DNA from: Euglena gracilis
Taxonomy: Eukaryota
Length of the DNA stretch: 64,000 nt
Direction of reading: 5' to 3'
Assembly (NCBI GenBank): GCA_039621445.1
Contig: CP154954.1
Location: forward strand, 1,736,001 to 1,800,000
Part shown: piece by piece, positions 665 through 64,000 of the stretch
How the letters are laid out: every line of letters begins with the position of its first letter
Position numbering within the stretch: position 1 is the stretch's first letter
The notes under the pieces: generated by a model
Databases searched by the model: none
What the model was told of the DNA's origin: nothing
The model's input: the letters and a program-made list of their open reading frames with translations, nothing else
Translations under genes and position numbers: made by a program

Positions 665-736
665 GGCTCAGTAGCTCAGAGGTAGAGCAGGGGATTCATA
701 AGCCCTTGGTCACAGGTTCAAATCTTGTCTGAGCCA
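665..736 (+). tRNA. trnM: tRNA-Met(CAU)
   Basis: Acceptor GGCTCAG/CTGAGCC, anticodon loop TTCATAA, T-loop GGTTCAAATC. Confidence 0.93.
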
Positions 737-740
737 AACT

Positions 741-813
741 GCGCTTTTAGTTCAATTGGTAGAACGTAGGTCTCCAAAACCTGATGTAGTAGGTTCGAAT
801 CCTACAGAGCGCG
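741..813 (+). tRNA. trnW: tRNA-Trp(CCA)
   Basis: Acceptor GCGCTTT/AGAGCGC, anticodon loop CTCCAAA, GGTTCGAATCC. Confidence 0.95.
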
Positions 814-840
814 TTTATTTTTTTTCTTTATCTTAAATTT

Positions 841-913
841 GCCCCCATCGTCTAGAGGCCTAGGACATCTCCCTTTCACGGAGGCAACGGGGATTCGAAT
901 TCCCCTGGGGGTA
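841..913 (+). tRNA. trnE: tRNA-Glu(UUC)
   Basis: Typical plastid trnE GCCCCCATCGTCTAG..., anticodon loop CTTTCAC. Confidence 0.95.
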
Positions 914-919
914 ATTTAT

Positions 920-992
920 GCGGGTATAGCTCAGTTGGTAGAGCGTGGTCCTTCCAAGTCCAATGTCGCGTGTTCGAATCACGTTACCCGCT
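920..992 (+). tRNA. trnG: tRNA-Gly(UCC)
   Basis: Acceptor GCGGGTA/TACCCGC, anticodon loop CTTCCAA. Confidence 0.95.
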
Positions 993-1052
993 TTTAACTT
1001 TTTGTCTTTATAGAAAGTTAATTTTTAATTTTTATGATATTTTTAATATACT

Positions 1053-4000: not shown

Positions 4001-4323
4001 CTTCGGTGGTAGTTTCGATACTTTAAGTTTTAATGATCCTGCTACTGTGAAAAGATATGCACGACGTGCTCAGCTTGGAGAAATTTTTGACTTTAATCGT
4101 TCTATTTTACAGTCTGATGGTGTTTTTAGAAGTAGTCCAAGAGGCTGGTTTACTTTTGGTCATTTGTCTTTTGCTTTAATTTTCTTTTTTGGGCATATTT
4201 GGCATGGGGCAAGAACTTTATTTAAATATTTGCTTGCTGGTATTGACCCTGATTTGGAGGAAGAGATTGAATTTGGTACTTTTGAAAAATTAGGTGATGA
4301 TACAACTAAGAGAATTAGTTTAA
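1053..4323 (+). CDS. psbB: photosystem II CP47 apoprotein, 5 exons (approx. 1053-1059, 1562-1576, 1681-2187, 2756-2826, 3399-4323)
   Basis: Spliced exons give [30 protein letters not shown]...; introns begin GTGCG/TTGTG/GTGCG/TTGCG; a 2-nt deletion near 4311 garbles the last codons relative to the copy at 41050-41613. Confidence 0.95.
1060..1561 (+). mobile_element. group II intron (psbB intron 1)
   Basis: 5' GTGCG; domain V-like AGCCGTATGTT...AGTACGGTTT at ~1490-1522; interrupts the Leu3 codon. Confidence 0.88.
1577..1680 (+). mobile_element. group III intron (psbB intron 2), 104 nt
   Basis: NUNNG start (TTGTG), ~100 nt, very U-rich, removal restores YRV-HTV. Confidence 0.88.
2188..2755 (+). 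mobile_element. group II intron (psbB intron 3)
   Basis: 5' GTGCG; removal restores LSG-KIEP. Confidence 0.85.
2827..3398 (+). mobile_element. group II intron (psbB intron 4)
   Basis: 5' TTGCG; domain V AGCCGTGTGCA...TGCATGCACGGTT at ~3329-3362; removal restores IAS-HHI. Confidence 0.88.
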
Positions 4324-5307: not shown

Positions 5308-8300
5308 AGTTGTATCATCACCTAATTTTTCAAACGTACCAAATTCAATCTCTTCCTCCAAATCAGGGTCAATACCAGCAAGCAAATATTTAAATAAAGT
5401 TCTTGCCCCATGCCAAATATGCCCAAAAAAGAAAATTAAAGCAAAAGACAAATGACCAAAAGTAAACCAGCCTCTTGGACTACTTCTAAAAACACCATCA
5501 GACTGTAAAATAGAACGATTAAAGTCAAAAATTTCTCCAAGCTGAGCACGTCGTGCATATCTTTTCACAGTAGCAGGATCATTAAAACTTAAAGTATCGA
5601 AACTACCACCGAAGAAACGAACAGTAACGCCTACTTGTTCAATACTATATTTAGACTCAGCACGACGAAACGGAATATCGGCACGAACAACACCATTTTG
5701 ATCTAATAATATTACTGGAAACGTTTCAAAAAAAGTAGGCATACGACGAACAAACAATGAATTACCTTCCTTATCAATAAATACTGCATGACCTAACCAT
5801 GCAGTCGCTATACCATCACCATTATTCATAGGACCAGAACGAAATAATCCACCTTTTGCTGGATTATTCCCAATATAATCATAAAAAGCTAACTTAGGCG
5901 AAATAGCACCCCAAGCTTCTGACAAAGAACAACCATCAGATAAACTAGCTTGAACACGTCTTTCTATTTCTTCCTGAAAATAACCTTTATCCCATTGGTA
6001 TCGAGTAGGACCAAATAGCTCAATAGGTGTAGAAGCAGAACCGTACCACATAGTGCCTGAAACAACAAATGCAGACCAAAAAACCGCAGCTATACTACTA
6101 GAAAGAACAGTTTCAATATTCCCCATACGTAAAAGTACAAACAAGCGTTGAGAAGGGCGAACTAAAACATGAAATCCACCAGCAATAAGTCCTAAAAGAC
6201 CTGCAGCAATATGATGCCTTGATAGAAAATAAATTATTATATTTCCTCAAAAAAACCGTGCATGCAAAATAAAAATGCACACGGCTTTAATTAATAAACC
6301 AAATTACTAATCAAATATTCCTAATACTATATTTAACACAAATTTTACAAATAGAAAAATACCTAAACAAATAAGTTATTTTTAAATCTTTAACTCAACT
6401 TTTTTTACAAAATATTCGTAAATACTAAACTTAGGAAAAAATTTCGAATCAAAGTGTAAAAAAAAATTTTGGAAAAAAATACAATTAATTAGTTATTATT
6501 TTCATACACAAAAAATAAAAATTACAATAACAAAATAAAATAAAATAAATTTTATGCTTCTTTAACAGCCAAACTCTCACAAAACTGTAAAAAAAGTTTT
6601 TATCAAGAATATTAATAAACTGCAAATATTATTGCAAAAAATATAACTAACCTAAAACAAAAATGGCTATTTAGTAAAAAAATCTACCTGGCTTTTTATT
6701 ACTAAAAATTAAAAATTGAATAAAAGGTATTAAAGTAAGAAAAAGTTAAAAACTTTTAACTCATAAGTATGAACTTTTACAACTCGCAAAGAAGCAATTC
6801 CACCTACATTATACGGATCAAAACCTTCAGCACCCCAAGAAGGAATAACAGGTTCAATTTGCAAGAATAGATTAAAAATCTTTCATCCGAAATTAAATAT
6901 GAAATTTTTAAATCATTTAACTACTCACTTATAAAGTACTTGTATTTTAACAAATACTTATATATCAAAATATAATTTTGATACTTTTATAAGTGTGATT
7001 TAAGTCAATAAAAATTAATAAAAAATTTTTCCGTTTAAATCATCCCCTCTAAAAAAGTTAAAAATAGACATATCAAAAAATGTCAAAGATAGAAACTAAA
7101 TTATTTCGTTGCTTTTTGTTGCTAAATGAAATTCTTGAGGACACACTTATCCACAATTTTGCTAAAAAATTAATCTTATTAGAAGAAAAATTAAAAATTA
7201 TACAAAATTTAATTAGAAAATATATAACTATGGCATAGCCAATATTTAGATTATCTATCCAAAAATCGTTAATTTTTTACAGTTAAAAAATTAAATAAGT
7301 TATCGTTCTTATTGATAACGCAATAATTTCAATAAAATAAAAGGTTTTTCACCTAATTGAACAAAAATTTCATAAAAAATCTCTTAACGATATAAAATTA
7401 TTAAAAGAACATTAAAAACGAATCGCACTCCCACTTAAACCATAAGGATCAGAAACCCAAATACCAGGACCAAAAACACCCGTAACATGGAAAACTCCAA
7501 AAGCTAAACATAATGCTCCAGACAAGAATAAATGAACTCCAAATACTCTAGGTAAATCTAACTTTAACTCACCACTAGCTGGATCACGAAATAAATCAAG
7601 GTCCCAATAAACCCAATGCCAAATAGCAGCTAAAAATAAAAGACCCGATAAAATTATATGTGCTACCGCTACACCTTCGTAACTCCAAATTCCTGGATCC
7701 GAAAAAGATTCCCCTGTAACACTCCAAGCACCCCAAGATTTTGTTACCCCTAAACGTGTCATAAAAGGAAGAACAAACATTCCTTGGCGCCACATAGGAT
7801 TTAGCGCAACATCAGAAGGATCAAAAATAGCAAGTTCATATAAGGCCATAGATCCAGCCCATCCTGAAACTAATGCAGTATGCATTAAATGAACAGAAAT
7901 CAAACGACCTGGATCATTAAGAACAACAGTATGTAAAACAAATATTTTTAAAAATTTTATTAAAAAATCAAAAAATAAACTATAAGGAAATTTTTAAAAC
8001 TATAAATATCATTTATAAGTAAAAAACTAAAAATCACAACACGATACCAAGGCAGGTAAAATCAACTTTAATAATTAAAAAGTTTTTTATCCGAAACCGT
8101 ACTTGTTAATTCAATAACATACGGCTACTCAATTATATAATCTTAAAAGATTAGAAAACGCAAAAAATACTTAAAATAACTTAGATATAATTCTGATTAA
8201 AAAATCATCCTTATAAAATTTAATATATATTTTTCGTTTTTTTTATCCGCTTTATTATTCTTTTAATGAAATGATCATTCATTTATTAATAACAAAAATA

Positions 8301-8563
8301 AATTAGAGGAATAAATAAATTATTTTTTAATAAAACATGGAAACAAATAACAAAAACTACAAAATGATCGTATAAACATTTCCTACTAAAGTTCCAAATT
8401 ATTTTTCTTTATAAACATAAGAAAATTTAAAGATAAAAAAATTCTTTCGATAATAAAAACTAAACTACTAAAATATCGGAAAATTAAGAGTAAAAATTTA
8501 ATTTACATGGACAAAAAATTTTTTTAAAAATAAGATCCAAATTTTACGAATCGCACATCCCAT
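5308..8563 (-). CDS. psbB: psbB, inverted copy (same 4 introns), last ~5 codons lost in the garbled palindrome centre
   Basis: ORFs 7412-7903 and 5230-6144 match the + copy; ATG at 8563. Confidence 0.93.
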
Positions 8564-8623
8564 AGTATATTAAAAATATCATAAAAATTAAAAATTAACT
8601 TTCTATAAAGACAAAAAGTTAAA

Positions 8624-8696
8624 AGCGGGTAACGTGATTCGAACACGCGACATTGGACTTGGAAGGACCACGCTCTACCAACTGAGCTATACCCGC
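8624..8696 (-). tRNA. trnG: tRNA-Gly(UCC)
   Basis: Reverse complement of 920-992. Confidence 0.95.
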
Positions 8697-8702
8697 ATAA
8701 AT

Positions 8703-8775
8703 TACCCCCAGGGGAATTCGAATCCCCGTTGCCTCCGTGAAAGGGAGATGTCCTAGGCCTCTAGACGATGGGGGC
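8703..8775 (-). tRNA. trnE: tRNA-Glu(UUC)
   Basis: Reverse complement of 841-913. Confidence 0.95.
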
Positions 8776-8802
8776 AAATTTAAGATAAAGAAAAAAAATA
8801 AA

Positions 8803-8875
8803 CGCGCTCTGTAGGATTCGAACCTACTACATCAGGTTTTGGAGACCTACGTTCTACCAATTGAACTAAAAGCGC
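8803..8875 (-). tRNA. trnW: tRNA-Trp(CCA)
   Basis: Reverse complement of 741-813. Confidence 0.95.
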
Positions 8876-8879
8876 AGTT

Positions 8880-8951
8880 TGGCTCAGACAAGATTTGAAC
8901 CTGTGACCAAGGGCTTATGAATCCCCTGCTCTACCTCTGAGCTACTGAGCC
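8880..8951 (-). tRNA. trnM: tRNA-Met(CAU)
   Basis: Reverse complement of 665-736. Confidence 0.93.
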
Positions 8952-8966
8952 TAAAAATTAATAGAT

Positions 8967-9039
8967 GGTGAATGACGGGGATCGAACCCGCGAATGAAGG
9001 AGTCACAGTCCTTTGCCTTACCACTTGGCTACACCCACC
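8967..9039 (-). tRNA. trnH: tRNA-His(GUG)
   Basis: Canonical-length copy of 575-649 (G-1, GTGGGTG/CATTCAC). Confidence 0.95.
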
Positions 9040-9103
9040 TATAAAAAATATAATAAAAATTTATTATAACTCGAAAACTGTCTGATTAAATATAAAAATA
9101 TTT

Positions 9104-9185
9104 TGAGTCGTGCTGGATTCGAACCAGCGAAAGATGAACTAGCGGATTTACAATCCGCCCCCATTAACCACTCGGGCAACAACTC
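9104..9185 (-). tRNA. trnY: tRNA-Tyr(GUA)
   Basis: Reverse complement of 429-510. Confidence 0.95.
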
Positions 9186-9261
9186 GCAATTAGATGTTAA
9201 ACAACAAAAACAATTAACATAGAAAAAGTTATTTAAGATCAAAAAAAATATAGATAAAACT

Positions 9262-9879
9262 ATGTCAAGATATAGAGGACCACGATTGCGAATAGTTCGT
9301 AGAATAGGAAAACTTCCAAGTCTTACAAATAAAACATCAAAGAAAAGAAAATCCCCAGGGCAACCAGCAACATCCTTTAAAAGGAAAAAAAAAATATCAA
9401 AATATAACATAAGATTAAAAGAAAAACAAAAACTGCGATTTAACTACGGAATAACCGAAAGACAACTTCTAAATTATGTAAAAAAATCTAGGAAAAAAAA
9501 AGGATCATCCGGAAGATTTTTGCTAACTTTTTTGGAAATGAGATTAGATAATATTGTACATCGAATAGGTTTTGCACCTACAATAATGGCTGCAAAACAA
9601 CTAATAAATCATGGTCACATTTGTGTAGATGACAAAGTTATCAATATACCTAGTTTTATTTGCCAACCAAAAAGTATTATAAAACCTAAAAAAAGTACTG
9701 TATCAGAAAATGTCATACAAAAAAACATAGAATCTAAAGAATTACTATTAATACCACCACATTTATCTCTTAACAAAAAAAACTTAGAAGCAAAAATTAT
9801 TGGTTTAATCAATAGAAAAGCGATATCGTTAATAGTTAATGAACTTTTAGTAATCGAATTCTATTCACGCAAGGTCTAA
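9262..9879 (+). CDS. rps4: 30S ribosomal protein S4
   Basis: 205 aa; MSRYRGPR..., [32 protein letters not shown] are S4 signatures. Confidence 0.98.
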   Translation: MSRYRGPRLRIVRRIGKLPSLTNKTSKKRKSPGQPATSFKRKKKISKYNIRLKEKQKLRFNYGITERQLLNYVKKSRKKKGSSGRFLLTFLEMRLDNIVHRIGFAPTIMAAKQLINHGHICVDDKVINIPSFICQPKSIIKPKKSTVSENVIQKNIESKELLLIPPHLSLNKKNLEAKIIGLINRKAISLIVNELLVIEFYSRKV

Positions 9880-14744: not shown

Positions 14745-24187
<9,443 letters not shown>

Positions 24188-28518: not shown

Positions 28519-29784
28519 TTCTCACAAAGTTCAAACAGTCTGTTTCTTTGATTTGACATTAATAGTATAATGGATTTTTTAAAATTAATTTTAAATGCAT
28601 ATAAATTAACTAACCTTAATATTTAATAAAACAAAAAGTTCCCTTAAAAAAATAATGTTTTAAAACAATTACTTCGATGTTTATACAATTTTGCAGAAGT
28701 ACTATTTTTCGCATTATTTTCATGGCCAAAATTAATTAACCAAGAACGAGCTTTTTTAATCCTTTATTTTCAAAGGCTTTCTTACGGAAGTTTGCAACCA
28801 ACCTGTTAATGCTTACTTCTCTTTTAGTTTCATTACTCTCCATTATTAAAGACAAATTAGATGCTGAGTTAAATAAATAAATTTTCGAAAAAAATAAACG
28901 AACTCTTGTTAAATAATAGTTTTTTTATAACATAAATTTTGATATTACACTACATAAAACTATTAGTTTTTCAAAAAAGTTGAAAAAATTAAAATGGTAT
29001 TATATGAACAAATTGTTTTTATTAACTCAAAACTTTAAAAATTGAAAAATTTGCCTCTTTATTAAATTTGATACTAAAAAATTATTGTCTTGTTTTTTTC
29101 ATATCATAGGAGTTTTCTAAAAATTTAATAATTTATATTTTTTGTAAAAAAATTACTTGTTCTTACCATTTAATAAAAATTTGGCTTTTATTAAAAAAAT
29201 TTTTTCATTAAATATTATATTGAAATTTATAACGAAAACGATGCTCTAATTCTATATTTAGTTGATTAGATGGAAATTTGATAAAATTAGAACCATTTTT
29301 ACTAATATAAATAGGTCAAGTGTTACACATACAATAGAGAAAATAAACCATAAAAAATTAAAGTATTTTTAACAAAATTGACGTACAATTTTTGTCCTAA
29401 CTTGAAAAAATAACAATCTTCAATTCTTGTAATAGGAAAGTTTGGCAAATTTATGGTATTATAGTAAAATAACAAAGTTTAAACTAGCTCAATATTAGAA
29501 AAAATTTTAAGCAATAGTATAAATAATTATTAAATTGACAAAAAATCATAACCAAAAAAGTATTAGAGTTCAAATTTTTAAGAGTCACTTTTTCTTTATT
29601 CAAAGATTGTCTTAAAAATTTCTTTACAAAAAGTTCAAACATGATGTTTTTTTATTATTTAACTTGTTGAGAGAAAAATTTTTTATCAAAACTTTAAAGA
29701 TTTTAACTACTTTAACAAAGAAATCGACAAAATTCATAAAAATCAATCAAAAACATACTCAATATTAATAAATAAACTCGCGAT

Positions 29785-29899
29785 AAGGGCACTAAAAGCT
29801 TTTCCCAGAAAGCAACCTTCCAAGTATCCATTTACCCTTTATGTTTAACTTGCAAGTTCGAAATGTTTTAAGTGGATCCATAAAGACAAGAGCACCCTA
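29785..29899 (-). rRNA. rrn5: 5S rRNA
   Basis: Terminal helix AGGGTGCT/AGTGCCCT, conserved CGAAC, ~115 nt, directly downstream of the 23S 3' end. Confidence 0.88.
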
Positions 29900-29973
29900 A
29901 AATAAAAGTTCATTCAAGAAACTTTTAAATCTTAAAAAAGTGACAAGTAAAAATAAATGTTTTGTTTTCATAT

Positions 29974-30290
29974 AGGAAAAAATTTTCGGTCGGTTAGTAT
30001 ATCTCGGCTAAAATTGTTACCAATTGTACACCTAATACCTATCAAACGGTTCGTCTTACCGTGACCTATGAAGAGTACTTATCTTAAGGTGGGCTTCCTA
30101 CTTATATGCTTTCAGCAGTTATCCACTCCGCACTTGACTACCCAGCGTATTCTGTTGGCACAAAAACTGGTACATCAGTGGTGCGTCCTTCCCGGTCCTC
30201 TCGTACTAAGGAAAGCGCCTTTCAATACTCTAACGCTCACACCGGATATGGACCGAACTGTCTCTCGACGTTCTGAACCCAGCTCACGTA

Positions 30291-30325
<35 letters not shown>

Positions 30326-30342
30326 GTACTACCGCCCCAGGT

Positions 30343-30402
<60 letters not shown>

Positions 30403-30564
30403 CAGCCTGTTATCCCTAGAGTAACTTTTATCTGTTTACGACGGCCTTTCCATACAGCACCGTCGGGTCACTAAGACCGACTTTAGTCTCTGTTTGACTT
30501 ATAAGTCTCACAGTCAAGCTTTCTTATGCCTTTACACTCCACAACTAATTCCGTAATTTGTGAG
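29974..30564 (-). rRNA. rrn23: 23S rRNA, 3'-terminal ~590 nt fragment (chimerically truncated)
   Basis: Peptidyl-transferase region (GGATAACAGGCTGAT, GGCACCTCGATGTCGGCTC, GAGCTGGGTTCAGAACGTCG) and sarcin-ricin loop AGTACGAGAGGACC. Confidence 0.96.
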
Positions 30565-30991
30565 TTCACAAAAAGCACGCCAAAATTCAGAATCTAAATT
30601 ATATATTTTTCCTTTCTTTTTTCGTAAGGCCAAATAAGATTCTATTTGGTTTTTATTAAGAAAAGAACCTTTACCTTCAACGCTCTTTTCAAAGTTTAGA
30701 TTATCATATTCGGATAACATAACATTTTTTTTTTACTTAAATTCTTGCCTAAAAGTCGAATTTTGAATTTTAATTTAATTAAATTAAAGAATAAATGAGT
30801 GAATCGAAACCAAAAACGTTTAAATCAAACTGTCAGTTTCAATACACTAACTACACTATTTTATAGTTTAAGTAATAATATACTATAAAACAAACATAAT
30901 TTTAAACTATTAATAATTGAAAAAATTTTTATTATAAAAAATCTATCAACATAAATTAAAAACGTATAATTTAATAAAACAATAAATTAAA

Positions 30992-36083: not shown

Positions 36084-38175
36084 TTATAAAGGTCCAGAAA
36101 TGCCTTGTTTACGTATCATTAAAAAATGTCCTAACATAAAAGTAGCTGTTAACAAAGGTAAAACAAATGTATGTAAACTATAAAAACGAGTTAAAGTAGA
36201 CTGTCCCACACTAACACTTCCTCTCAATAACTCAACAATAAAATTTCCAATTAATGGAATAGCTTCGGGAACACCTGTTACAATTTTAACTGCCCAATAA
36301 CCAACTTGATCCCAAGGTAAAGAATAACCTGTAACACCAAAAGAAACAGTTAAAATTGCCAAAATTATACCCGTAACCCAAGTTAACTCTCTAGGTTTTT
36401 TAAACCCACCAGTTAAATAAACTCGGCAAACATGTAATATCATCATTAAAACCATCATACTAGCGGACCAACGATGAATTGAACGAATAAGCCACCCGAA
36501 ATTAACTTCATTCATAATATATTTAACAGAAAGAAAAGCTTCTGTAACAGTTGGACGATAATAAAAAGTCATTGCAAAACCAGTAGCTACTTGAATAATA
36601 AAACAAGTAAATGTTATGCCACCAAGACAATAAAAAATGTTTACGTGAGGAGGAACATATTTACTGCAAAAACTAGTCATTTAAAAAATGATTGTTTTCC
36701 AACCCTACAAGATTGAAAAATAACTAATCAAATAATCAAAAGGCTTTTTATAAAAAAATTATTATTAAAAAATAGTTTTATCGATCTTTTATATAAACTT
36801 TTAAAAAGTCTCTGAATTATAAAAAATTTATTTAGTATTATAAAAACAACAAATATAAATACATTCAATAAATATTTAAAAAAATAAAAATAACATTAAA
36901 TAATTAAAAAACATATATATTTTAAACAATTTAGAACTTTTTAAACTACTAATATTTTATCATAAACATTTTACTAACCAACAAATCTATAAAATTTCAA
37001 ATAAAAAAGTATCTATAATTTAAAACATAAAAAATTTTATAAAACAAATTAAAATGTAAAAAAAAATTTATTAATAAAAACAATTAATTATCTTAAAATT
37101 AAGACTAAATATTTATAAACTAAAGCATTTATTCATTAAGATTTTTGTAAATAAATAATCATAATCTAGAATTGAAAAATAATAATACAAACCAAATCGC
37201 ACTAACATCGTCAGCAATCGCTTGAATCTCCAATCTTTCCTCGTACAGGTAAGCAAGCTCCCTTAAAAACAAAACAAGATATAGATAATCATTTTGCTTT
37301 ATAATTCTTAAAAACGAATACCAGTTAAAATTCCATATTAACAAATACAACAAATCGCAATTAAAATAAGAATTTTATTGAATTTTTTCCTACCTTAATA
37401 AAACCGTTTAATAGAATCCTAAATATTATTTTTTAATTTTGTAAAAATATAAAAGAAATGATATTCAAATTATTATATCTTAAAAAATTAATTCAGAGAA
37501 GCTACAACTTAGAAAAACACAACTACAATTATTTAAAATGAATTAAAGTATAACTTTATTATAATACTTTATTCGCAAACTGAAAAAATATTACTACATA
37601 TACACAGCTTTTGTCAAAACTAAAATTATCTAAAATTAGATAAGCGATCTTTATAACTCGTAACAAAAATAAAAATTTTTATTTTCTTTTGAAACTTACA
37701 GGTAATTTTAAATATTGATTCTTTTAAGAAATAACATTTAATTTAATAAAAATTAAAATATATAAAAAATATTATGTATTTCCAATTATTTTTAATCAAT
37801 ATTTAAACTTAGATTAAAATAGTACTTAGAAATTTTTATTAAATTTTTGATTCAAATTATAATATCCTAAAACAAAAACATAAAACTTTAAGTTAACCCT
37901 TTTTTCAAAAAAAAAATAGTAAAAATTATACTGTAACAAACAAAGTTTTTTCCATTACCGAAAAAGTTTAACAAGCAAAAAATTTGCTATTTAACATACA
38001 AATGCTAAATTACGGAGCAATAAAATAATTAAAATTTTATAAATAACTTTCTAAATTTATATGAAATTAGGCTTCAAACTATCAAATAGCTAAAAAACGC
38101 TAAGTAAAAATCTTCAGGAATTATAACCTAATATGCTAAATTCGGTCCGCACAACCAATCGTAAACTCGACTCAT
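36084..38175 (-). CDS. petB: cytochrome b6 (inverted copy, intact frame, 2 introns)
   Basis: MSRVYDWF / [13 protein letters not shown] / [17 protein letters not shown]...[10 protein letters not shown]. Confidence 0.96.
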
Positions 38176-43925: not shown

Positions 43926-46014
43926 ATGAGTCGAGTTTACGATTGGTTGTGCGGACCGAATTTAGCATATTAGGTTATAATTCCTGAAGATTTTTACTTA
44001 GCGTTTTTTAGCTATTTGATAGTTTGAAGCCTAATTTCATATAAATTTAGAAAGTTATTTATAAAATTTTAATTATTTTATTGCTCCGTAATTTAGCATT
44101 TGTATGTTAAATAGCAAATTTTTTGCTTGTTAAACTTTTTCGGTAATGGAAAAAACTTTGTTTGTTACAGTATAATTTTTACTATTAAAAAAAAAAAAAA
44201 AGGGTTAACTTAAAGTTTTATGTTTTTGTTTTAGGATATTATAATTTGAATCAAAAATTTAATAAAAATTTCTAAGTACTATTTTAATCTAAGTTTAAAT
44301 ATTGATTAAAAATAATTGGAAATACATAATATTTTTTATATATTTTAATTTTTATTAAATTAAATGTTATTTCTTAAAAGAATCAATATTTAAAATTACC
44401 TGTAAGTTTCAAAAGAAAATAAAAATTTTTATTTTTGTTACGAGTTATAAAGATCGCTTATCTAATTTTAGATAATTTTAGTTTTGACAAAAGCTGTGTA
44501 TATGTAGTAATATTTTTTCAGTTTGCGAATAAAGTATTATAATAAAGTTATACTTTAATTCATTTTAAATAATTGTAGTTGTGTTTTTCTAAGTTGTAGC
44601 TTCTCTGAATTAATTTTTTAAGATATAATAATTTGAATATCATTTCTTTTATATTTTTACAAAATTAAAAAATAATATTTAGGATTCTATTAAACGGTTT
44701 TATTAAGGTAGGAAAAAATTCAATAAAATTCTTATTTTAATTGCGATTTGTTGTATTTGTTAATATGGAATTTTAACTGGTATTCGTTTTTAAGAATTAT
44801 AAAGCAAAATGATTATCTATATCTTGTTTTGTTTTTAAGGGAGCTTGCTTACCTGTACGAGGAAAGATTGGAGATTCAAGCGATTGCTGACGATGTTAGT
44901 GCGATTTGGTTTGTATTATTATTTTTCAATTCTAGATTATGATTATTTATTTACAAAAATCTTAATGAATAAATGCTTTAGTTTATAAATATTTAGTCTT
45001 AATTTTAAGATAATTAATTGTTTTTTAATAAATTTTTTTTTACATTTTAATTTGTTTTATAAAATTTTTTATGTTTTAAATTATAGATACTTTTTTATTT
45101 GAAATTTTATAGATTTGTTGGTTAGTAAAATGTTTATGATAAAATATTAGTAGTTTAAAAAGTTCTAAATTGTTTAAAATATATATGTTTTTTAATTATT
45201 TAATGTTATTTTTATTTTTTTAAATATTTATTGAATGTATTTATATTTGTTGTTTTTATAATACTAAATAAATTTTTTATAATTCAGAGACTTTTTAAAA
45301 GTTTATATAAAAGATCGATAAAACTATTTTTTAATAATAATTTTTTTATAAAAAGCCTTTTGATTATTTGATTAGTTATTTTTCAATCTTGTAGGGTTGG
45401 AAAACAATCATTTTTTAAATGACTAGTTTTTGCAGTAAATATGTTCCTCCTCACGTAAACATTTTTTATTGTCTTGGTGGCATAACATTTACTTGTTTTA
45501 TTATTCAAGTAGCTACTGGTTTTGCAATGACTTTTTATTATCGTCCAACTGTTACAGAAGCTTTTCTTTCTGTTAAATATATTATGAATGAAGTTAATTT
45601 CGGGTGGCTTATTCGTTCAATTCATCGTTGGTCCGCTAGTATGATGGTTTTAATGATGATATTACATGTTTGCCGAGTTTATTTAACTGGTGGGTTTAAA
45701 AACCTAGAGAGTTAACTTGGGTTACGGGTATAATTTTGGCAATTTTAACTGTTTCTTTTGGTGTTACAGGTTATTCTTTACCTTGGGATCAAGTTGGTTA
45801 TTGGGCAGTTAAAATTGTAACAGGTGTTCCCGAAGCTATTCCATTAATTGGAAATTTTATTGTTGAGTTATTGAGAGGAAGTGTTAGTGTGGGACAGTCT
45901 ACTTTAACTCGTTTTTATAGTTTACATACATTTGTTTTACCTTTGTTAACAGCTACTTTTATGTTAGGACATTTTTTAATGATACGTAAACAAGGCATTT
46001 CTGGACCTTTATAA
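43926..46014 (+). CDS. petB: cytochrome b6, exons approx. 43926-43948, 44858-44898, 45432-46014; 1-nt homopolymer frameshift near 45700
   Basis: Cytochrome b6 sequence; split ORFs 45419-45715 and 45736-46014 are one frame in the mirror copy. Confidence 0.94.
43949..44857 (+). mobile_element. petB intron 1, 909 nt (group II, likely twintron)
   Basis: 5' GTGCG; length about twice a typical Euglena group II intron; internal domain V-like AGCTGTGTA at ~44492. Confidence 0.75.
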
Positions 46015-46081
46015 AAATTCTTTGTGTTTATGATTTTTACGATGTATTTCTTAATTATAAGGAACCCTTGAGCCTTGTTTA

Positions 46082-49124
<3,043 letters not shown>

Positions 49125-49274
49125 AATTATTATTGACGTATTGTAAATAATTTTTAACTATATCTTACTTAAAAAGCTTTTATTAATATTTATTTAGTTA
49201 TGCTTTGTTGAGTAAACATAATGTTTCCACTTTGTTTTTTTAGTTTGACTACGAAAAATTATAATTTTTTTACA

Positions 49275-51100
49275 ATGACATTAGATGTATCAATTAGTAC
49301 GTTACGAAGTTGCTTTTAGTTTATTAGGTATAAGTTAAAATAAAAGATAAGAAATAAAATTTTATTTATGTGTTTTTTTTAAGTTAAGTAAATTTTCCTT
49401 AAATTGTATGTTTTTGGCTATTCATATTAATTAAAAAATTGGTTAATCTAATTGGTTAATCTTAATATTTTCAATAATTTGTTAATAAGTTTAGTAATTT
49501 TTCAAGTAGAACGTAAATAGGTTTTATTTTGGATTTTTTTTTAATAAAGAATAAACTTTTGACATATTTTTATTTAAAATTAAATGTTTAAGCTGTATGT
49601 TTTTTTTTACTTGTACAGTTTTTTAAGAGAAATTTTAGTTCGCTAATATATTTCTTTTTTCATTAAATTCTAGTTTAAATCTTTTTTCTTGAGTATTTAT
49701 TTTTCAAAAGTTAATTTTTTAAATAATTTTCGTTTTTGGGGATTTTATTCTCTTTTTTAAACTTTTCTGTATGAAAAGTAAAATTATTTTATTTTTTGGT
49801 AATTGAAATTTATTTATTATTTTAGTAGACCAATAAAAGCAAAGAGAATAGGTTTTAATTTAATTTTCTATAAATTTTTATTCTAAAGAAAATTTTACAT
49901 TTTAGTTTTAATAAGTCTTGTTTTAGAGTTTTATATAATATAAAACAACCTAACCTTTTTTGCGATAGTATGTTGAAAAGCTAAATAAATCAACAATTTT
50001 TGTTTAGTTTGTGAATAAAATTTTCAAAATTGAATTTATATTTTCTACTTTACTTATTCCTGAAAGAGTTTTTTGGGAAAAACGAGTTGAAGAAATTATT
50101 CTTCCTACTTTAAGTGGTCAGATGGGGGTTCTTAAAGACCATGTGTGACACATTATTAAAACGTTTGTTAATTTTATTAATTATAATTTTTTGATAAATG
50201 CTTGTTTGAGATTTAACTTTACTTTTACTTTTAACCATATTAGTTAATTATTTTTATTTTCTGCATTAACATTTTGTTTGTGCGTGGTAGCTTTGAATAT
50301 TTTCTAAAATTTAAAATTTACTTTTTTATAAATTATTTTTTATAAATAAGAAAAATTTAAAATTTTAAGATTAATATAATTTATAGTTTATTTTGAAAAT
50401 GTATATTTAAGTCTTGTTTTAGAAGAATATATTTAAACTGTTATTTTATAACTATTTAAAGTGTTTTTACATGTTTTAGAAAAAATTTTTAATAGTTTTA
50501 ATTTTTTTAAAAACAATACTTGATAAACATAATTTGTAAGATATAATATTTGAATCTAAAAAATTTTTAAATTTGTATGCAATGGTAAGGAATGTGTATT
50601 TTTATGTAAATTATTTACAAAATTTTTGTTTTTTTTTAGTACTTTTGATTCTATCACAATTTAGTTTTAGTCAATTTTTAAGCAAATTTTAAAAGATTTT
50701 TTGTTAAATGCCGTATGAGATTTAAATCTCCCGTACTGTATTGTTGGGGAAAAAATTAACTTAATTTATTAATTTTTAATGATAAATTTTTTTCTATCTA
50801 AATATTCCAATATTGACTGGATTAGATATAGGTATAATCTTAGTTCGTCAAAAGTCTTCTTCCGATTGGACTAGTTTGGTTGTAACAGGAGGTTTTGCAT
50901 TAATTAATAGCAATAACGTTACTATATTAGTCAATGAAGCAGAATTTGGTTCCGAAATTAATGTAGAACAAGCACAGATTTCTTATAATTCATCTAAACA
51001 TGCTTTAGAAATGAATAAAGATATTAAGAGAAAATTTGAATTAACTTTAAATTTAAAAAAAGCACGTGCTAGATTCCAGGTCACTCAACTTAAAAAGTAG
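49275..51100 (+). CDS. atpE: ATP synthase CF1 epsilon subunit, exons approx. 49275-49296, 50054-50142, 50804-51100
   Basis: MTLDVSI / IPERVFW...LPTLSGQMGVLKDH / IPILTGLDIG...KKARARF. Confidence 0.93.
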
Positions 51101-51371
51101 TTTAATTTATTGTTTTATTAAATTATACGTTTTTAATTTATGTTGATAGATTTTTTATAATAAAAATTTTTTCAATTATTAATAGTTTAAAATTATGTTT
51201 GTTTTATAGTATATTATTACTTAAACTATAAAATAGTGTAGTTAGTGTATTGAAACTGACAGTTTGATTTAAACGTTTTTGGTTTCGATTCACTCATTTA
51301 TTCTTTAATTTAATTAAATTAAAATTCAAAATTCGACTTTTAGGCAAGAATTTAAGTAAAAAAAAAATGTT

Positions 51372-52089
51372 ATGTTATCCGAATATGATAATCTAAACTT
51401 TGAAAAGAGCGTTGAAGGTAAAGGTTCTTTTCTTAATAAAAACCAAATAGAATCTTATTTGGCCTTACGAAAAAAGAAAGGAAAAATATATAATTTAGAT
51501 TCTGAATTTTGGCGTGCTTTTTGTGAATCTCACAATATTAATATGGAATCTATTTTAAATTTATATATATCGAATAAATCTATTTCTAGTAAGGATTGTT
51601 AAAATACTATCTTATATTGTTGGACGAGATTACCTTAAAGGCAGAACCGCTAACTTTTATGCTTACATTAAAGTGGATAAACGATTAGATACGCGCTCGA
51701 CTCGTTTTTTGGATTTGAGATTAAAAAAAGACTGTGAAGAGGTTACAGTTTGTGGAAATTATAGCGCAGCTAAGTCAGAAGAATATTCTATCGATTATAT
51801 AATAAAAATGGTTTTAAGTCAGAGAGCATATGGTATACAAGATTTTACTGATTCGTTAGTAATTAGTCCGTGTTTGTCTGTAAAATTAGATGATCATTAC
51901 CAAATGTTGTCACTTTGGAACCGCATGATAAAACTAGCTGAAAAAGGCAATATTTTTAAGGCTCTATCTCTTTTAAAAAAAGAAAGGCCAGATTACTACA
52001 TCAAAAAATTTGTAGCAATTAAAAAAAATTTAAATGCAATTTTTATGTCTTTTAAAAATGATAAAAAATTAAATAGGGAGGTTTTATGA
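51372..52089 (+). pseudogene. degenerate geminivirus-Rep-like protein (HUH-fold plus oligomerisation region, no helicase), one frameshift near 51600
   Basis: ORFs 51372-51602 and 51673-52089 join after removing one T; contains KRLDTRSTRFLDL (GRS-like), CGNYSAAKS..IDYIIK (motif III) and RMIKLAEKG..ALSLLKKERP; clearly paralogous to the downstream Rep. Confidence 0.65.
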
Positions 52090-53930
52090 ATTTATTAAAT
52101 ACGAACAAAAATAACATTGATAATAATATGAGACGTATTTCATCAAAAAAAGTTTTTTTAACCTATTCTTATTGTTCCGCAGATCTTTCAGAAATTTTAA
52201 ATTTTTTTAAAAATAAATTTGAAGTAAAATATGGACTAGTTGATTATGCGTTGGTAAGATAGTTTCATAAAACCGGATACCCTCATGTACACTCATATTT
52301 CGTTTTTATTAAAAAAATAGACACTAAGGCAGCAAATTTTTTTGATATATATGTTGATTCTAAAACTTATAGTGCATATGTTCAAACAGTTAATAACGAG
52401 AAAGATTTGTTGGACTATTTAACAAAACAAATATTTAACTTTGTAGATGCTTCAAAAAATTTCATGGCTTCTCCATCAATTTTGAAAAAGTATGGTAAAT
52501 ATTTTGAATATTGTCCATTAGAAGAAAGGATGATTGAATTAGCAAAAAAAGGAGAGATAGCGGATGCTATGTTGTTGTTTGAAAAAGAAAAACCTTCTGA
52601 ATTTGTATATAAAGGTGATGCTATTGAAAAACGACTTAGAAACATATATTTAAGCACAAGGTTAGGAGTTAAAGCAAAAATTAATTTTAATGACTATGTG
52701 ATACCTCGAGATTTAAGGTGGATGTTAGACATTTATGAATCTTATCTGAATATGGGTGAAAATAAAGTATTTTTAATTTTAGGCGGTGAGCTTAGGTATT
52801 TAATAGATTTTTTTGAATCTTATTTGCAATTCATCAGCTTTTATCTTCTAGTAGTAAAGGCAGCTAAGAATCTACTGTGATTTAGATATAATTGTAATTA
52901 CTATGCGATAATTTTTTCATACTCTAGCATTTTAGAGTATCAAAATGTAGATGAGCTAAAAAATTTATTTAACTCTTTACAAACAAGGTTAAAAGCTCAT
53001 AATAGAATAAATAGTTTTAAAGTACTTTTATTTCCTTTTTTATATAAAGCTATAATGTAGTCAAAAAGCTGTAAAGTTGTGGAACAATTTCTAAAAGAAA
53101 AAGGAATTGAAATGCAAGGCATACTACCTTAGCAATTAAATGCCGATGATAAATATTCCCCCACATCATATTCAGAAATGGAAAAATCAAGAATACAGAG
53201 AACTTGAAAGTAAAAACTAAAGTTATATTCAAGAATTCTTAAAAAAGCTATATAGAATGATGAAAATGAAGGAAATGATAATCACAAATACTCTACGTTT
53301 TTATTATATGTTATATATTTATCGTAGGGAATAACTAATTTGTTAAAATATGTTAGATTTATTCTGGGCGGTTAGTGGTAACATAATTTGAAAGCCCTCT
53401 GACATCAAAGTTCGAATTATTCAAGCACTGAGGTTTTTTTAATAAGATTTTGCAATTTTAAAGGAGAGTAGTAATAAGGAAGCTTAGAGAAGATTAATAA
53501 TGATTTAGAAATACTTGTCATTACCGATGCGATAATTTTTCAGACTACTAGCATTTAGAGTATCAATGTAGATGAGCTAAAAAATTTATTTAACTCTTTA
53601 GAAACAACGTTAAAAGTTCATAATCGAAAAAATAGTGTTAAAGTACTTTTATCTCCTGCTTTACCAAAAGCTATAATGTCGTCAAAACCTTATAAAGTTT
53701 TGGAACAATTTTTTAAAGAAAAAGGAATTGAAATGGAAGGCATACTACCTTATCAATTAAATGCCGATGATAAATTACTTCCCCCACATTTTCATAATTC
53801 AGAAATGGAAAAATCAAAGGAATACAGAGAACTTGAAAGTAAAACTAAAGTTTATATTCAAGAATTCTTAAAAAAAGCTAATATGAATGATGAAAATGAA
53901 GGAAATGATAATCAAAAAAATACTAATTAA
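52086..53930 (+). pseudogene. geminivirus/CRESS-type rolling-circle replication initiator (HUH endonuclease plus degenerate SF3 helicase); in-frame TAG at 52260, 3' half disrupted by a tandem duplication
   Basis: Manual translation from 52086: ...RRISSKKVFLTYSYC...ALVR*FHKTGYPHVHSYF...KIDTKAANFFDI...DLLDYLTK; GGGAGG Shine-Dalgarno upstream. Confidence 0.8.
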
Positions 53931-54110
53931 TACGTTTTTATTATATGTTATTATTTTATTAGTAATAAAAATATTACTAATTTGTTATTTGTTATAAATA
54001 TGTTATATTTATTCTAGGGCGGAAAATTAGTGGTAACATTAATTTGTTAAAAAATGCCTCTTGACATCAAAAGTTCGAATTAATTTTGAAAAGCATGAGG
54101 CATTTTTTTA
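52800..54110 (+). repeat. imperfect ~0.65 kb tandem duplication (approx. 52800-53440 and 53441-54110)
   Basis: Shared strings GATGAGCTAAAAAATTTATTTAACTCTTTA (52950, 53572) and TGATGAAAATGAAGGAAATGATAATCA (53258, 53888). Confidence 0.85.
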
Positions 54111-54114
54111 ACAA
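54044..54114 (+). terminator. long stem-loop downstream of the Rep-like gene (terminator or origin element)
   Basis: Arms TTGTTAAAAAATGCCTC / GAGGCATTTTTTTAACAA with inner TCAAAA/TTTTGA stem, ending in a T-run. Confidence 0.55.
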
Positions 54115-54537
54115 TTATTTTAAGTTTAATAAAACTTAAAATTTTTTTTTAATAAATTTTTTTTTTTCTGTCCGCCCGGAGAATAAAAAAATTTAGAAAA
54201 TTATTGCTCTATTATTTTTGGGAGAATAAAATGAACAATTCAAAAACAAAACTTCAAAAAAAAAAATAAAGTTCGCTGAGAATAAAATACCAGCGGACAC
54301 GTTTTTGTTATTTTTTGTTATAAAGTTGTGATTAAAATCATTATAAATATTATTACTAGTATAATTATTATCAAATTAATTTTTATTTTATTGCTAACTT
54401 GTTATTAAATTGTTATTAAATAGCTAATTTGTTGTATGAGCATTAAGCGTTAAATTAATTGGGTAGGTCAACAATAAACTATTGTTGAAAGAATATAGTT
54501 ATAGTTAATTGGACAAATTTTTTATGGGAGAATAATT

Positions 54538-55719
54538 ATGGTTCAAAAATTAAGAAAAAAATACAAATTCAAAATTAACACCACAAGTTCGAGATATTAT
54601 GGTAGTTATAATATAACACGTAATTGGAGAATTTTAATAAGGACAAATTTTCAATCTTTAATAGAAATGGATTATTCTTTTATTAAAAAATGGCATGCAA
54701 TAATAAACGACGATAAAATTTCTTTTATTATGTATACCATATGCAAATACGTGGATTTTCAGAAAGAAACCGATATTTTTATTAAAGCTTACCTCGAACT
54801 AAAGAAAAATTGTCGGCCAAAATATTTAGAAGACTTGTTTAGTTTTGATAAAAATACAAATATAAGTATCGAAAAAGCTAAAGGGGATAGTCCTGGCAAT
54901 GTTGGTGGTTTTATTATTAATTGCCGAGACCCCGAAGAGGAACTTTTTTGGAATAGAATACCGCGCTATGAATCTAAAAATAATAACTGTTTAAGTTTTA
55001 AATTTATTACTCAATATAATTTAATTGAGAAAGCAAGGGGAAATTATTTTCTACCTAAAATTTTCCTTGAAGTTTTAAAAAAAGGTCCGGAAGAGATTGA
55101 TAAAGAAAAAAGAAAAACTGTTTTAGCAAAAAAAATCGATAATGACGAAGAAATAGAAAAAATAGAAATAAAAAAAGAAAAACAATTTGAAATTAAGAGC
55201 TTTTTCGAGGATTCAGAATTTTTAGCAATAACCGAAAAATATACAAAAAAGTGTGAGGATTTAATAAATATTAACAATAAAGGGAAAAAAATAAGAGATT
55301 TATTTTGCAATTATATTTTAGAATTATTAATTCTAGAAATAAATATTTTAAATTCTCAAAGTAAACCAAAATATTCGGATGTTTTTATTTGTACTTATAA
55401 AAAAAAAAAGAACAATAATGAAATAGAGTGGTATTTTAATTGGATGTCTATTGATAGAATCCTTAAACAATTTTTATATAAATCAATTAAACCGTGGCAA
55501 AATAAAAATATTGACGATATTAATCAAGGAGAAATTTATAATATAATTACTAATAAATCACTTACAGATAATACAATAAATTCTGTTAAACGTTCTTTTC
55601 AAAATAGATTGAATGAAAATGTTAACTTAACGAACGTAAGAAAATCATACAAAAAAATAAAATTTGTTTCGTTTAGTTTAACTAAGTTTTATAGCAATGA
55701 AAATAACGTTTTTTTGTAA
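54538..55719 (+). CDS. hypothetical protein, 393 aa, intron-less
   Basis: Long open frame in very AT-rich DNA; GGGAG Shine-Dalgarno 7 nt upstream of the ATG; no motif recognised. Confidence 0.75.
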   Translation: MVQKLRKKYKFKINTTSSRYYGSYNITRNWRILIRTNFQSLIEMDYSFIKKWHAIINDDKISFIMYTICKYVDFQKETDIFIKAYLELKKNCRPKYLEDLFSFDKNTNISIEKAKGDSPGNVGGFIINCRDPEEELFWNRIPRYESKNNNCLSFKFITQYNLIEKARGNYFLPKIFLEVLKKGPEEIDKEKRKTVLAKKIDNDEEIEKIEIKKEKQFEIKSFFEDSEFLAITEKYTKKCEDLININNKGKKIRDLFCNYILELLILEINILNSQSKPKYSDVFICTYKKKKNNNEIEWYFNWMSIDRILKQFLYKSIKPWQNKNIDDINQGEIYNIITNKSLTDNTINSVKRSFQNRLNENVNLTNVRKSYKKIKFVSFSLTKFYSNENNVFL

Positions 55720-55814
55720 AATTAAAAATTGAGATTTTCGTATGTGATAGTTTTAATACTAGCCTTATAAGAGATTTTCTTAATTTAATTACAAGTGAAG
55801 ATATTCTATGGATA

Positions 55815-56267
55815 ATGTATTCGGTAGAACCTGTAATATTAATACATACTGATTCCAAAGATAAAATTCTTCAAGAGACATATCTAAAATTAGAATGTAA
55901 AGCAGTAAAATCACAGCTATATTTAAATATATATGTGATATTTGATGAAAAAAGAGTATGGACTAAAAATTTAGTTGAAAGCTTTTTTTCTACTATTAAA
56001 AATGGTAAAATTTTAAATATATCAAACGTACCAAAACTAGGAGGTCTTTGTTTTTGTTATGTTCTTAATAACCTTTTGCTAAAAGCAAATAAAAAAAATC
56101 AATTAGCTGAAATTAAAATATATCAGCATACAAAATATGAAATTCCTTCCAAATATAAAATCAAATTTATCAACGAATCGCCATTATTTTTAAGAGAATA
56201 TACTGGGTCTTTGAACTTCTTATATATTTTACTTAGTATGTTACTAGATAATATAACTAATAAATAA
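55815..56267 (+). CDS. hypothetical protein, 150 aa
   Basis: Open frame co-oriented with the 393-aa ORF; no motif recognised. Confidence 0.55.
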   Translation: MYSVEPVILIHTDSKDKILQETYLKLECKAVKSQLYLNIYVIFDEKRVWTKNLVESFFSTIKNGKILNISNVPKLGGLCFCYVLNNLLLKANKKNQLAEIKIYQHTKYEIPSKYKIKFINESPLFLREYTGSLNFLYILLSMLLDNITNK

Positions 56268-56748
56268 TTAAGTTATTATATTATTCCATTAAAATTTTTT
56301 AAAGTCCACCAAGAATAAAATTCTAGTGGACACGTTTGTTATTAAATTGTTATTATTAGTATAATTATTATAAAATTATTTAATTAAAAATATAAATAAT
56401 TTAGTTAGCTAGTTGTTATTAAAATGTTATTAACTTTTTTAAAGTTCACCGAGAATAAAATCCTAGTGGACACGTTTTTGTTATTTTTATTGGTTTTAGT
56501 TTAAGGTCAGCAGGAACAACTTTTATAACCTTTTATTATGGTATCGTACTTTAATAAATCTAAATTTAAGGAATTCTGCAACATATTCTAAAGATAAAGG
56601 GCATTTTGGAGATGTAAGAAATACTTTCCTAGCTGACAGTCGGTATTTAGCGTTTTTACCAACGTTTTTTTCAAATTTATTAAAGGAACTTTTCTTTGAT
56701 TTTACTTTTTTCTAACGTAATTTTTTGATTAGTTTTATTTGGAGTTAT

Positions 56749-56798
56749 AACCTATTATTAATCTATTAACCTATTATTAATCTATTAACTTATTATTA
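56749..56798 (+). repeat. 19-bp tandem repeat (AACCTATTATTAATCTATT x2.6) followed by a TAT microsatellite
   Basis: Read directly from the sequence. Confidence 0.8.
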
Positions 56799-57134
56799 TA
56801 TTATTATTATTATTAGGGGGCAATTTACTTAGCAAATTCTCGGTCGTTACTGACAAAACGGGGTATGGTTTTGTAAACATTAACCACGCAATAACACAAT
56901 CACAATATTGCACTAATAACTTAAAAAAGTCACTCACATGATATTATTACTAAATAAATGTAATCTGCCTCAGGCAAACGGTTTTGAACTATGTGTATGA
57001 AAAGTAATGAGAATTCTTTACAATTAAAGGGATGTAACATGTAAATCGTTAAATACGACTGCATACAACTCCTATTTAAGATACTATGTACGGGAAATAA
57101 GCAAAAAATAATACATTATTCAAGGAAAACTACT

Positions 57135-57344
57135 ATGGTACGTAAAAAAGATATATTAAATGAAAGGTTAAAAAATTACACAATAGAAACAGACGTGTCC
57201 CGTAAGGTGAGGCAAAAAGTTGCGTTCCGTTTAGCGGCTAAAAACATATTTTTGATGTATAATAAAGTTTCATCTTCATTTACTGTGGAGGATATTAGTT
57301 ATTCTTTACTTGAGAAGCTGAAGCCATATGGTGTATTATCGTAG
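57135..57344 (+). CDS. hypothetical small protein, 69 aa
   Basis: ATG start with AAGGA 8 nt upstream; basic N-terminus; no recognised homology. Confidence 0.35.
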   Translation: MVRKKDILNERLKNYTIETDVSRKVRQKVAFRLAAKNIFLMYNKVSSSFTVEDISYSLLEKLKPYGVLS

Positions 57345-57536
57345 ATACGTATATTGACTGTGAAACTAACGTAACTGACTTATCTAGAGTAAAAGAAACT
57401 AAACGTGAGTATTATATTTTTAGACCTCAAATAGACAAAAATTAGTAGCAAAACTTATTAATAATAATAATGTAAATTATCTATAAATAACTGTAAAGTG
57501 ATTTTTCGAATATAATTTTTATTTTATTATTAAAAT

Positions 57537-64000
<6,464 letters not shown>

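Follow-up and report, generated by a model that had tools for sequence, protein, structure and literature searches.

What occupies the spacer between atpE and rbcL in the plastid genome of Euglena gracilis? The question was addressed in a stretch of 64,000 nucleotides (assembly GCA_039621445.1, contig CP154954.1, positions 1,736,001 to 1,800,000 of the forward strand), referred to as the window, with positions counted from its first letter. What the window contains is plastid genome sequence of the E. gracilis type, with the tRNA cluster Y-H-M-W-E-G, many exon-sized open reading frames (ORFs) of psbB, petB, atpB, atpE, rpoB, rpoC and rbcL, and a GC content of 15–33% across the profiled part (44000–64000). 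The final exon of atpE ends at 51100, as placed by Pfam, and rbcL exon 1 starts at 57537, where the protein read is one that we take to be the rbcL N-terminus. ORFs in between are 97–100% identical to the E. gracilis proteins P31919 (ORF281; 97% identity to the spacer frame), P31920 (ORF295) and P48338 (ORF274), all of which carry the database label "uncharacterized protein in rbcL-atpE intergenic region". Hypothetical proteins of 333 and 586 amino acids (ORF333 and ORF586) from var. bacillaris also match. The spacer has thus been published before, with its content left unexplained; the E. gracilis chloroplast genome, a classic reference, was reportedly sequenced by Hallick et al. in 1993. The analysis described here indicates that the spacer is very probably a graveyard of decayed small circular replicons, either circular Rep-encoding single-stranded (CRESS) DNA viruses or plasmids, which encoded a geminivirus-like replication initiator protein (Rep).

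A Rep profile was built from 105 relatives of at least 250 amino acids, drawn from 148 listed identifiers (P0011–P0158) with the shorter ones excluded. It was run over all stop-to-stop frames of the whole window and also over the six frames of 50800–58000 with stops masked. Significant matches in the whole-window six-frame scan were confined to the spacer, where four pieces in two orientations were found:

51559..52086, plus strand: Rep pseudogene A, 26% identical to Rep B (BLASTP, E 2e-15).
52086..52982, plus strand: Rep pseudogene B, positions 9–296 of our own profile, E 2.5e-64.
56678–56553, minus strand: Rep fragment C, profile positions 18–54, E 8.3e-9 (6.7e-9 in the whole-frame scan).
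57147–57341, plus strand: Rep fragment D (ORF69), profile positions 13–60, E 3.7e-6 (5.4e-6 in the whole-frame scan).

The identification is carried by Rep B. The query was the frame 52086–52880, with its in-frame TAG (52260–52262) read through as X. In this form Rep B matched the Pfam family PF00799, the geminivirus Rep catalytic domain, with 33 bits (curated cut-off, 24), and the solved geminivirus Rep domains in the Protein Data Bank, compared by sequence, with E 1.5e-6. Pfam and PHROGs searches of the ORFs as listed, without read-through, gave no Rep match; since the PF00799 match appears only after the TAG is read through, the Rep is missed in those ORFs. Motifs I (FLTY), II (HVH) and III (YLTK) are present and are followed by a linker domain. 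A structure model of Rep B, built with the alignment of its relatives, had a mean predicted local distance difference test score (pLDDT) of 86. Its best fold match was the Rep of tomato yellow leaf curl virus (TYLCV; 7vg8), with a target-normalised template modelling score (TM) of 0.85 and a root-mean-square deviation of 2.0 Å; the corresponding TM for the wheat dwarf virus Rep (6q1m/6we0) was 0.82, and geminivirus Reps outranked circovirus and nanovirus Reps in the fold search. Sequence identity to the solved geminivirus nuclease domains is 21–26%. By fold and motifs, Rep B belongs to the geminivirus-type branch of HUH Reps. A weak continuation of its C-terminus is seen at 53523–53807 (profile positions 271–361, E 0.007).

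The other three pieces are shorter. The profile match of Rep A covers 51598–52050 (positions 56–196, E 5.6e-34) and extends from motif II to the linker domain only. Fragment C is an N-terminus with the motif I FLTS (KYRLSARKVFLTSPKC), and it ends about 50 bp short of the nearest copy (56440–56488) of a hairpin repeat described below. Fragment D is likewise an N-terminus, with a degenerate motif I, FLMY (FRLAAKNIFLMY); it showed weak tblastn matches to Rep N-termini in four viral loci and no significant similarity to Rep B in pairwise comparison. C and D are arranged head to head, 470 bp apart. A quick free tree separates A from B, with A on a long branch; the tree with A and B together is better by 28.5 log-likelihood units (approximately unbiased test, p 0.90). 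Either a tandem duplication or two insertions may thus lie behind A and B.

All four Rep copies are defective. Rep A has FYAY where the HUH motif should be and YIIK as its YxxK; both motif I and everything past the linker, with it the helicase part, are missing. The TAG of Rep B aligns to Glu in 12 of 14 aligned relatives and to Ser and Gln in the other two; Glu also occupies this position in P0024, a relative with 56% identity. The 58-amino-acid product that ends at the TAG is found in exact form on eight other contigs, and the var. bacillaris annotation of the Rep begins downstream of it. Walker A is replaced by GGELRYL, which does not fit GxxxxGK[ST], whereas all 14 aligned relatives have GK[ST]. 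Other residues also stand in place of the FHGNY block between motifs II and III; in the relatives this block (FHGNYQ..K) presumably resembles that of geminiviruses. A further stop, TGA at 52878, interrupts Rep B in this window.

Damage of the same kind is seen in the closest relatives. P0010 and P0053, which are 81–89% identical to Rep B and lie on one 1379-bp metagenome contig, are split elsewhere than Rep B. P0053 (81% identical) is without the P-loop as well, having LILGSEHRYL in its place, and P0024 is open for only 91 amino acids. Breaks that differ between lineages, added to a P-loop loss that the lineages share, are what a long-nonfunctional, drifting gene should show. Presumably, no piece of the spacer can now replicate as a rolling circle.

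From what kind of element could these sequences have come? An exhaustive HMMER search of 1.84 billion representatives gave 376 relatives of Rep B at E≤1e-3, of which 69 reached E≤1e-10 and 5 reached E≤1e-30; outside Euglena the best matches had E~1e-36, with 35–37% identity over residues 16–252. The PF00799 threshold was passed by 19 of the 20 top relatives scanned, the exception being the 91-amino-acid fragment P0024. The ten nearest relatives that were looked up lie on contigs of 1024–2854 bp and, apart from that fragment, are Reps of 339–574 amino acids; the non-coding space on these contigs is 360–470 bp in the five cases computed. Related loci in IMG/VR were found with a six-row alignment query, and 57 of the 65 are on contigs under 3 kb. 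The locus closest to Rep B, L001 (31% identity over 245 amino acids), is 2508 bp long, has overlapping ends and encodes a 542-amino-acid Rep alone. Its non-coding DNA of about 750 bp contains a GC-rich hairpin (1122–1161) and short repeats. Single-protein scans found no relative in viral contigs, with P0012 and P0001 as queries, or in metagenome contigs, with P0001 as the query. The small Rep contigs, and L001 for which alone the gene content was checked, suggest that the donor was likely a Rep-only mini-circle. Such a donor is likely to have been more plasmid-like or satellite-like than virus-like.

Geminivirus Reps (PF00799; TYLCV and wheat dwarf virus) have the HUH fold and the order of motifs I–III in common with Rep B, and the linker domain followed by a superfamily 3 (SF3)-type P-loop in common with its relatives. 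Unlike them, Rep B is interrupted by stops, has lost the P-loop and resides in a plastid genome, and the spacer yielded neither a capsid gene nor a TAATATTAC-type origin. The uncultivated Rep elements (P0011–P0031 and L001) are nearer, with 30–37% identity over nearly the whole preserved part of Rep B, linker included. Their size of 1.4–2.9 kb is close to that of the repeat-bracketed Rep module described below (~2.2–2.8 kb). They differ from Rep B in their intact frames and Walker A; circularity was checked for L001 only.

Precedents for such insertions exist. Lee et al. (2016) described red-algal plasmids with geminivirus-related replicases, and remnants of them in red-algal organelle genomes (PMC4814812), so that Rep-type replicons have left remnant replication domains in plastid ORFs before. 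The red-algal case concerns primary red plastids, whereas the plastid here is a secondary green one; the remnant plastid domain is a B-family polymerase, and Euglena is not mentioned in that paper. Endogenous geminivirus-like Rep sequences are also found in plant nuclear genomes, for example in yam (PMC5014472). As here, these insertions are integrated, partly decayed and often present in several copies, but they are nuclear rather than organellar. Our full-text literature search, with most subscription journals outside its scope, turned up no description of Rep-like genes from any euglenid plastome.

The plastid of E. gracilis lies behind three membranes. Rep relics in its genome would mean that a replicon of the single-stranded-DNA type had at some time made its way into a secondary plastid, and would give the long-uncharacterized rbcL-atpE ORFs an origin. 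A secondary plastid of the green lineage would thereby join the few documented plastids with plasmid- or virus-derived DNA, for which red algae are the closest precedent. The spacer would also offer dated fossils for the geminivirus-like Rep family.

The repeats reported by the original prediction, an earlier reading made from the letters of the window alone, are real: the spacer has direct repeats, a tandem repeat and hairpins. Those around Rep B are:

51115..51207, plus strand: left copy of a direct repeat of about 92 bp, just past atpE, 71% identical to its partner.
53920–54012, plus strand: right copy of this repeat, just past the Rep reading frame.
52878–53419 and 53501–54082, plus strand: two tandem copies, ~620 bp start to start, 85% identical.
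54036..54112, plus strand: hairpin with a T run, ~110 nt past the end of the Rep frame, -14.6 kcal/mol, z -4.15.

The local alignment score of the 92-bp repeat is 26, compared to 14.0 ± 2.0 for shuffled sequence, and none of 300 shuffles reached 26. Its two copies bracket a Rep module: they are 2805 bp apart, or ~2.2 kb when the extra 620-bp copy is subtracted, and a module of ~2.2 kb has the size of the free Rep relatives. The tandem copies contain a vestige of the helicase part at the C-terminus of Rep B. Copy 1 is full of stops; copy 2 holds ORF84 (53676–53930), which is the C-terminus of reference ORF281/ORF333, and the reference records have a single copy of the unit. None of 200 shuffles was as stable as the hairpin at 54036..54112, and its counterpart after copy 1 is unfolded (z +1.31). 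These direct repeats, like the hairpin repeat around ORF576 described below, could be borders of integrated units; elements for 3′-end processing are equally possible. Between fragments C and D lies a further repeat, iteron-like by position only:

56748..56798, no strand assigned: 19-bp unit repeated 2.7 times, 96% matches, score 95.

The Shine-Dalgarno-like sites of the original prediction were also found. GGGAGG (52076–52081) stands 4 nt ahead of the ATG of Rep B at 52086, GGGAG (54526–54530) 7 nt ahead of the ATG at 54538 that begins ORF576, an orphan gene discussed below, and AAGGA (57122–57126) 8 nt ahead of the ATG of ORF69 at 57135. GGGAG occurs at ten sites on the plus strand of the window, of which three are in the spacer, each 7–11 nt before an ATG.

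The original prediction had read the spacer as one rolling-circle replicon of about 6 kb integrated into the plastome. Rep-type genes accompanied by repeats are indeed there, but a single ~6-kb element does not agree with four defective pieces in two orientations, nor with relatives of 1.4–2.9 kb. A better fit is several insertions, or duplications within the spacer, with later decay. Plastid DNA beyond the end of atpE may have received one or more ~2-kb elements, probably with Rep alone. Rep sequences would then have been duplicated, or inserted again, and would afterwards have decayed: copy A may have been left without its two ends and its metal-binding HUH motif; copy B would have kept the three nuclease motifs, lost the helicase P-loop and gained a nonsense codon; and copies C and D would have become head-to-head N-terminal stubs. 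What the data show is the Rep homology, the defects, the repeats and the occurrence in further E. gracilis-type records; the route of integration, the number of events and the non-function of the copies are what we infer.

Several observations weigh against a graveyard of Rep replicons. The search for an origin-like stem-loop with a Rep nick motif found none, and the nick motif NANTATTAC is at chance frequency (24 matches, 21.4 ± 4.6 expected). Comparisons with Pfam, PHROGs and viral and plasmid sequences gave neither a capsid gene nor any other gene of a virus or plasmid, and tblastn of Rep B against 72,556 plasmid records gave no match. The codon-usage check that had been proposed for the spacer brought out no foreign signal: GC content at third codon positions (GC3) is 0.16–0.22 in spacer ORFs and 0.17–0.19 in plastid genes, and relative synonymous codon usage (RSCU) correlates with that of rpo/rps genes (r 0.73–0.88). 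With codon usage so plastid-like, the argument for a foreign origin is one of homology alone; the usage is consistent with long residence and adds no support. Rep B and P0024 both retain the HUH and YxxK residues at 53–56% identity, so the nuclease domain may be, or may once have been, under constraint. For psbC of Lepocinclis tripteris, Karnkowska et al. (2018) proposed that an in-frame UAG is read through (PMC6207741), so the TAG alone is no proof of a dead Rep gene. Finally, the features of the window described below point to a long-read-type assembly with chimeric, unpolished parts. Of the other sites looked for, an 11-nt stretch that matches the L001 hairpin loop is at chance level, as 38 of 100 shuffles did equally well, and neither promoter-like sites (53, with 49.8 ± 6.9 expected) nor terminator-like sites (1, with 1.2 expected) are enriched.

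Does the rest of the spacer have the same origin? Five co-oriented, unsplit ORFs had been reported in it, and all five were recovered on the plus strand:

51673–52089, plus strand: ORF of 138 amino acids, unsplit, previously called a dead Rep.
52407–52880, plus strand: ORF of 157 amino acids, unsplit, previously called Rep; its stop-to-stop frame starts at 52263.
54538–55719, plus strand: unsplit ORF of 393 amino acids (ORF393).
55815–56267, plus strand: unsplit ORF of 150 amino acids (ORF150).
57135–57344, plus strand: unsplit ORF of 69 amino acids (ORF69), with the rbcL start 193 bp downstream.

The labels of the first two were borne out, for A by BLASTP and profile, and for B by PF00799, profile and fold; the 69-amino-acid ORF proved to be Rep fragment D, and fragment C had been overlooked. 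None of the five had been recognised as a plastid gene, and searches of Pfam and NCBIfam assigned no spacer ORF to a plastid gene family. Among the 5.8 billion proteins searched, relatives of Rep and ORF576 were found in E. gracilis-type records only, which does not bear out the alternative of conserved, vertically inherited plastid genes. Hrda et al. (2012) listed eight genes specific to E. gracilis in comparison to Eutreptiella; they gave no origin for the ORFs (PMC3308993). In a plastid proteome study, 48 of 67 plastid-encoded proteins were detected (bioRxiv 10.1101/573709).

The 393- and 150-amino-acid ORFs had been counted as two; they are one gene, frameshifted in this window. This gene, and the remaining orphan and the repeat associated with it, are as follows:

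54538..56267, plus strand: ORF576, an orphan gene, here split into 393 and 150 amino acids.
51372..51602, plus strand: ORF76, an orphan without family match, with its exact sequence on eight other contigs.
54267..54315, 56300–56348 and 56440–56488, plus strand: hairpin direct repeat of 49–94 bp, one copy before and two after ORF576.

ORF576 is open for 576 amino acids on five other contigs and for 586 in var. bacillaris. The split in this window is at a run of seven T (55709–55715), where the intact form needs eight; in the 1993 Z record it is at another site, a run of A. At a stop frequency of 0.10 per codon, the probability of no stop in 576 codons is ~2e-27, and ORF576 therefore is, or until very recently was, a real gene. 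It is lineage-restricted. No family or relative was found in Pfam, NCBIfam, the protein atlas, viral contigs or plasmid records, and a single-sequence AlphaFold model was unusable (pLDDT 32.7). A second copy of the ORF576 leader (ATTATTTTTGGGAGAATAA) lies 306 bp upstream, at 54211–54270, ahead of a 12-codon mini-ORF with its ATG at 54232.

The hairpin repeat has three matches against 0.00 expected and is found nowhere else in the window. Its loop, AGAATAAAAT, is conserved, and one stem pair is changed on both sides (G-C to A-T). The folds are modest, with z values of -1.5, -3.4 and +0.1 for the three copies, and they are without a known origin motif. The repeats delimit an ORF576 unit of about 2.0–2.2 kb.

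ORF576 had been regarded as cargo of the inserted replicon, a claim that finds no backing: nothing links it to Rep elements in the Rep-bearing contigs, the viral loci or the hhalign comparison, where the probability of a relation to the Rep family was 0.15%. Its ties to these elements are its position, its similar GGGAG leader and its repeat-bracketed unit only. It is quite possible, if short of probable, that only the Rep pieces are foreign, and that the insertions lie beside native plastid sequence specific to the lineage, namely ORF576, ORF76 and the repeats. The lack of relatives in Rep-bearing contigs, viral collections and plasmid records and of profile similarity to Rep agrees with such an origin, as does the codon usage of ORF576, which correlates best with plastid rpo/rps genes (r 0.88); strain-specific unidentified ORFs have moreover been described from spacers of other euglenid plastomes (PMC6207741). 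A native ORF576 is harder to reconcile with the Rep pieces on both sides of it, with a GGGAG site like that of Rep B, and with a repeat-bracketed unit of ~2.0–2.2 kb, sized like the Rep module and the Rep-only circles.

A bolder form of the Rep replicon reading would join both units. The E. gracilis lineage would have hosted, and some strains may still host, multipartite Rep mini-circles of ~2 kb in the plastid; a Rep and an ORF576 component would have been integrated, each between direct repeats, ORF576 would be a new cargo or structural protein, and the hairpin repeat with the AGAATAAAAT loop would be their shared origin region. We consider this unlikely.

Could Rep B still be in use? Its nuclease and linker part might have been domesticated, or might be active, if made by read-through of the TAG or in stop-free strains. 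Such a protein would nick plastid DNA at specific sites, or bind it, without a helicase, in replication or recombination, and the hairpin repeats would be its targets. The intact motifs I–III of Rep B, with II and III also kept in P0024 at 56% identity, the confident model (pLDDT 86) and the strong GGGAGG 4 nt ahead of the ATG would agree with a functional protein. So would the read-through proposed for psbC of Lepocinclis tripteris (PMC6207741), and the conserved loop and two-sided stem change of the hairpin repeat. The TAG, however, is present on eight other contigs, the relatives are broken at differing points (P0010/P0053, and P0024 with its 91 amino acids), the FHGNY block is replaced and Walker A is gone, and the hairpins fold weakly in two of three copies. 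Retention of an active Rep B is thus very unlikely, and decayed Rep replicons remain the preferred account of the spacer.

The window itself contains several irregular regions. At 18083–23759, among exons of rpoB and rpoC, 5.7 kb of ~85% C are open in four reading frames; this tract is almost certainly sequencing or assembly junk. Past rbcL exon 1, the stretch 58000–60500 has a GC skew of 0.88–1.00, is nearly C-free, G/T-rich, degenerate and of low complexity, and represents junk sequence or else an intron insert of a very odd kind. A 21-kb palindrome of 99.6% identity spans 30554–51540, with its centre at ~41047 in a 5′-truncated copy of psbB. Its right arm extends 440 bp into the spacer, to 51540, and ends inside ORF76, the first 170 bp of which lie within it; its left arm abuts a 3′ fragment of 23S rRNA and 5S (29784–30578). 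Either the palindrome arose as a fold-back chimera, or the molecule is really rearranged in this way. One petB ORF of 198 amino acids is found on the left arm (36084–36680, minus strand), whereas on the right arm petB is split into 98 and 92 amino acids (45419–45715 and 45736–46014, plus strand), which indicates indel noise next to the spacer. The best of 24 listed public sequencing runs contained 0.86 of the sampled words of the spacer. The 5′ end of tandem copy 2, read against the reference protein, resembles the reference with small indels.

Errors of the kind that produced the poly-C tract and the palindromes, to which the frameshifted petB arm, the seven T in place of eight in ORF576, the 620-bp extra copy absent from the reference proteins, the indels in copy 2 and the incomplete read support may also be traced, are a most improbable source of the odd structure of the spacer, as the Rep pseudogenes, the TAG, ORF576 and ORF69 occur in E. 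gracilis Z, in var. bacillaris and, with exact matches, on 5–8 contigs. These independent records mean that an artefact could explain only the 620-bp duplication, the TGA at 52878 and the ORF576 frameshift, all three of which are doubtful and may be assembly artefacts, and that the Rep relics are independent of this window.

Outside the spacer, positions 1–4307 recur inverted at 5308–9613 as a 4.3-kb repeat of 99.6% identity, which duplicates the Y-H-M-W-E-G tRNA cluster and psbB exons. At its inner ends this repeat has ~680 bp in common (97%) with the central part of the 21-kb palindrome.

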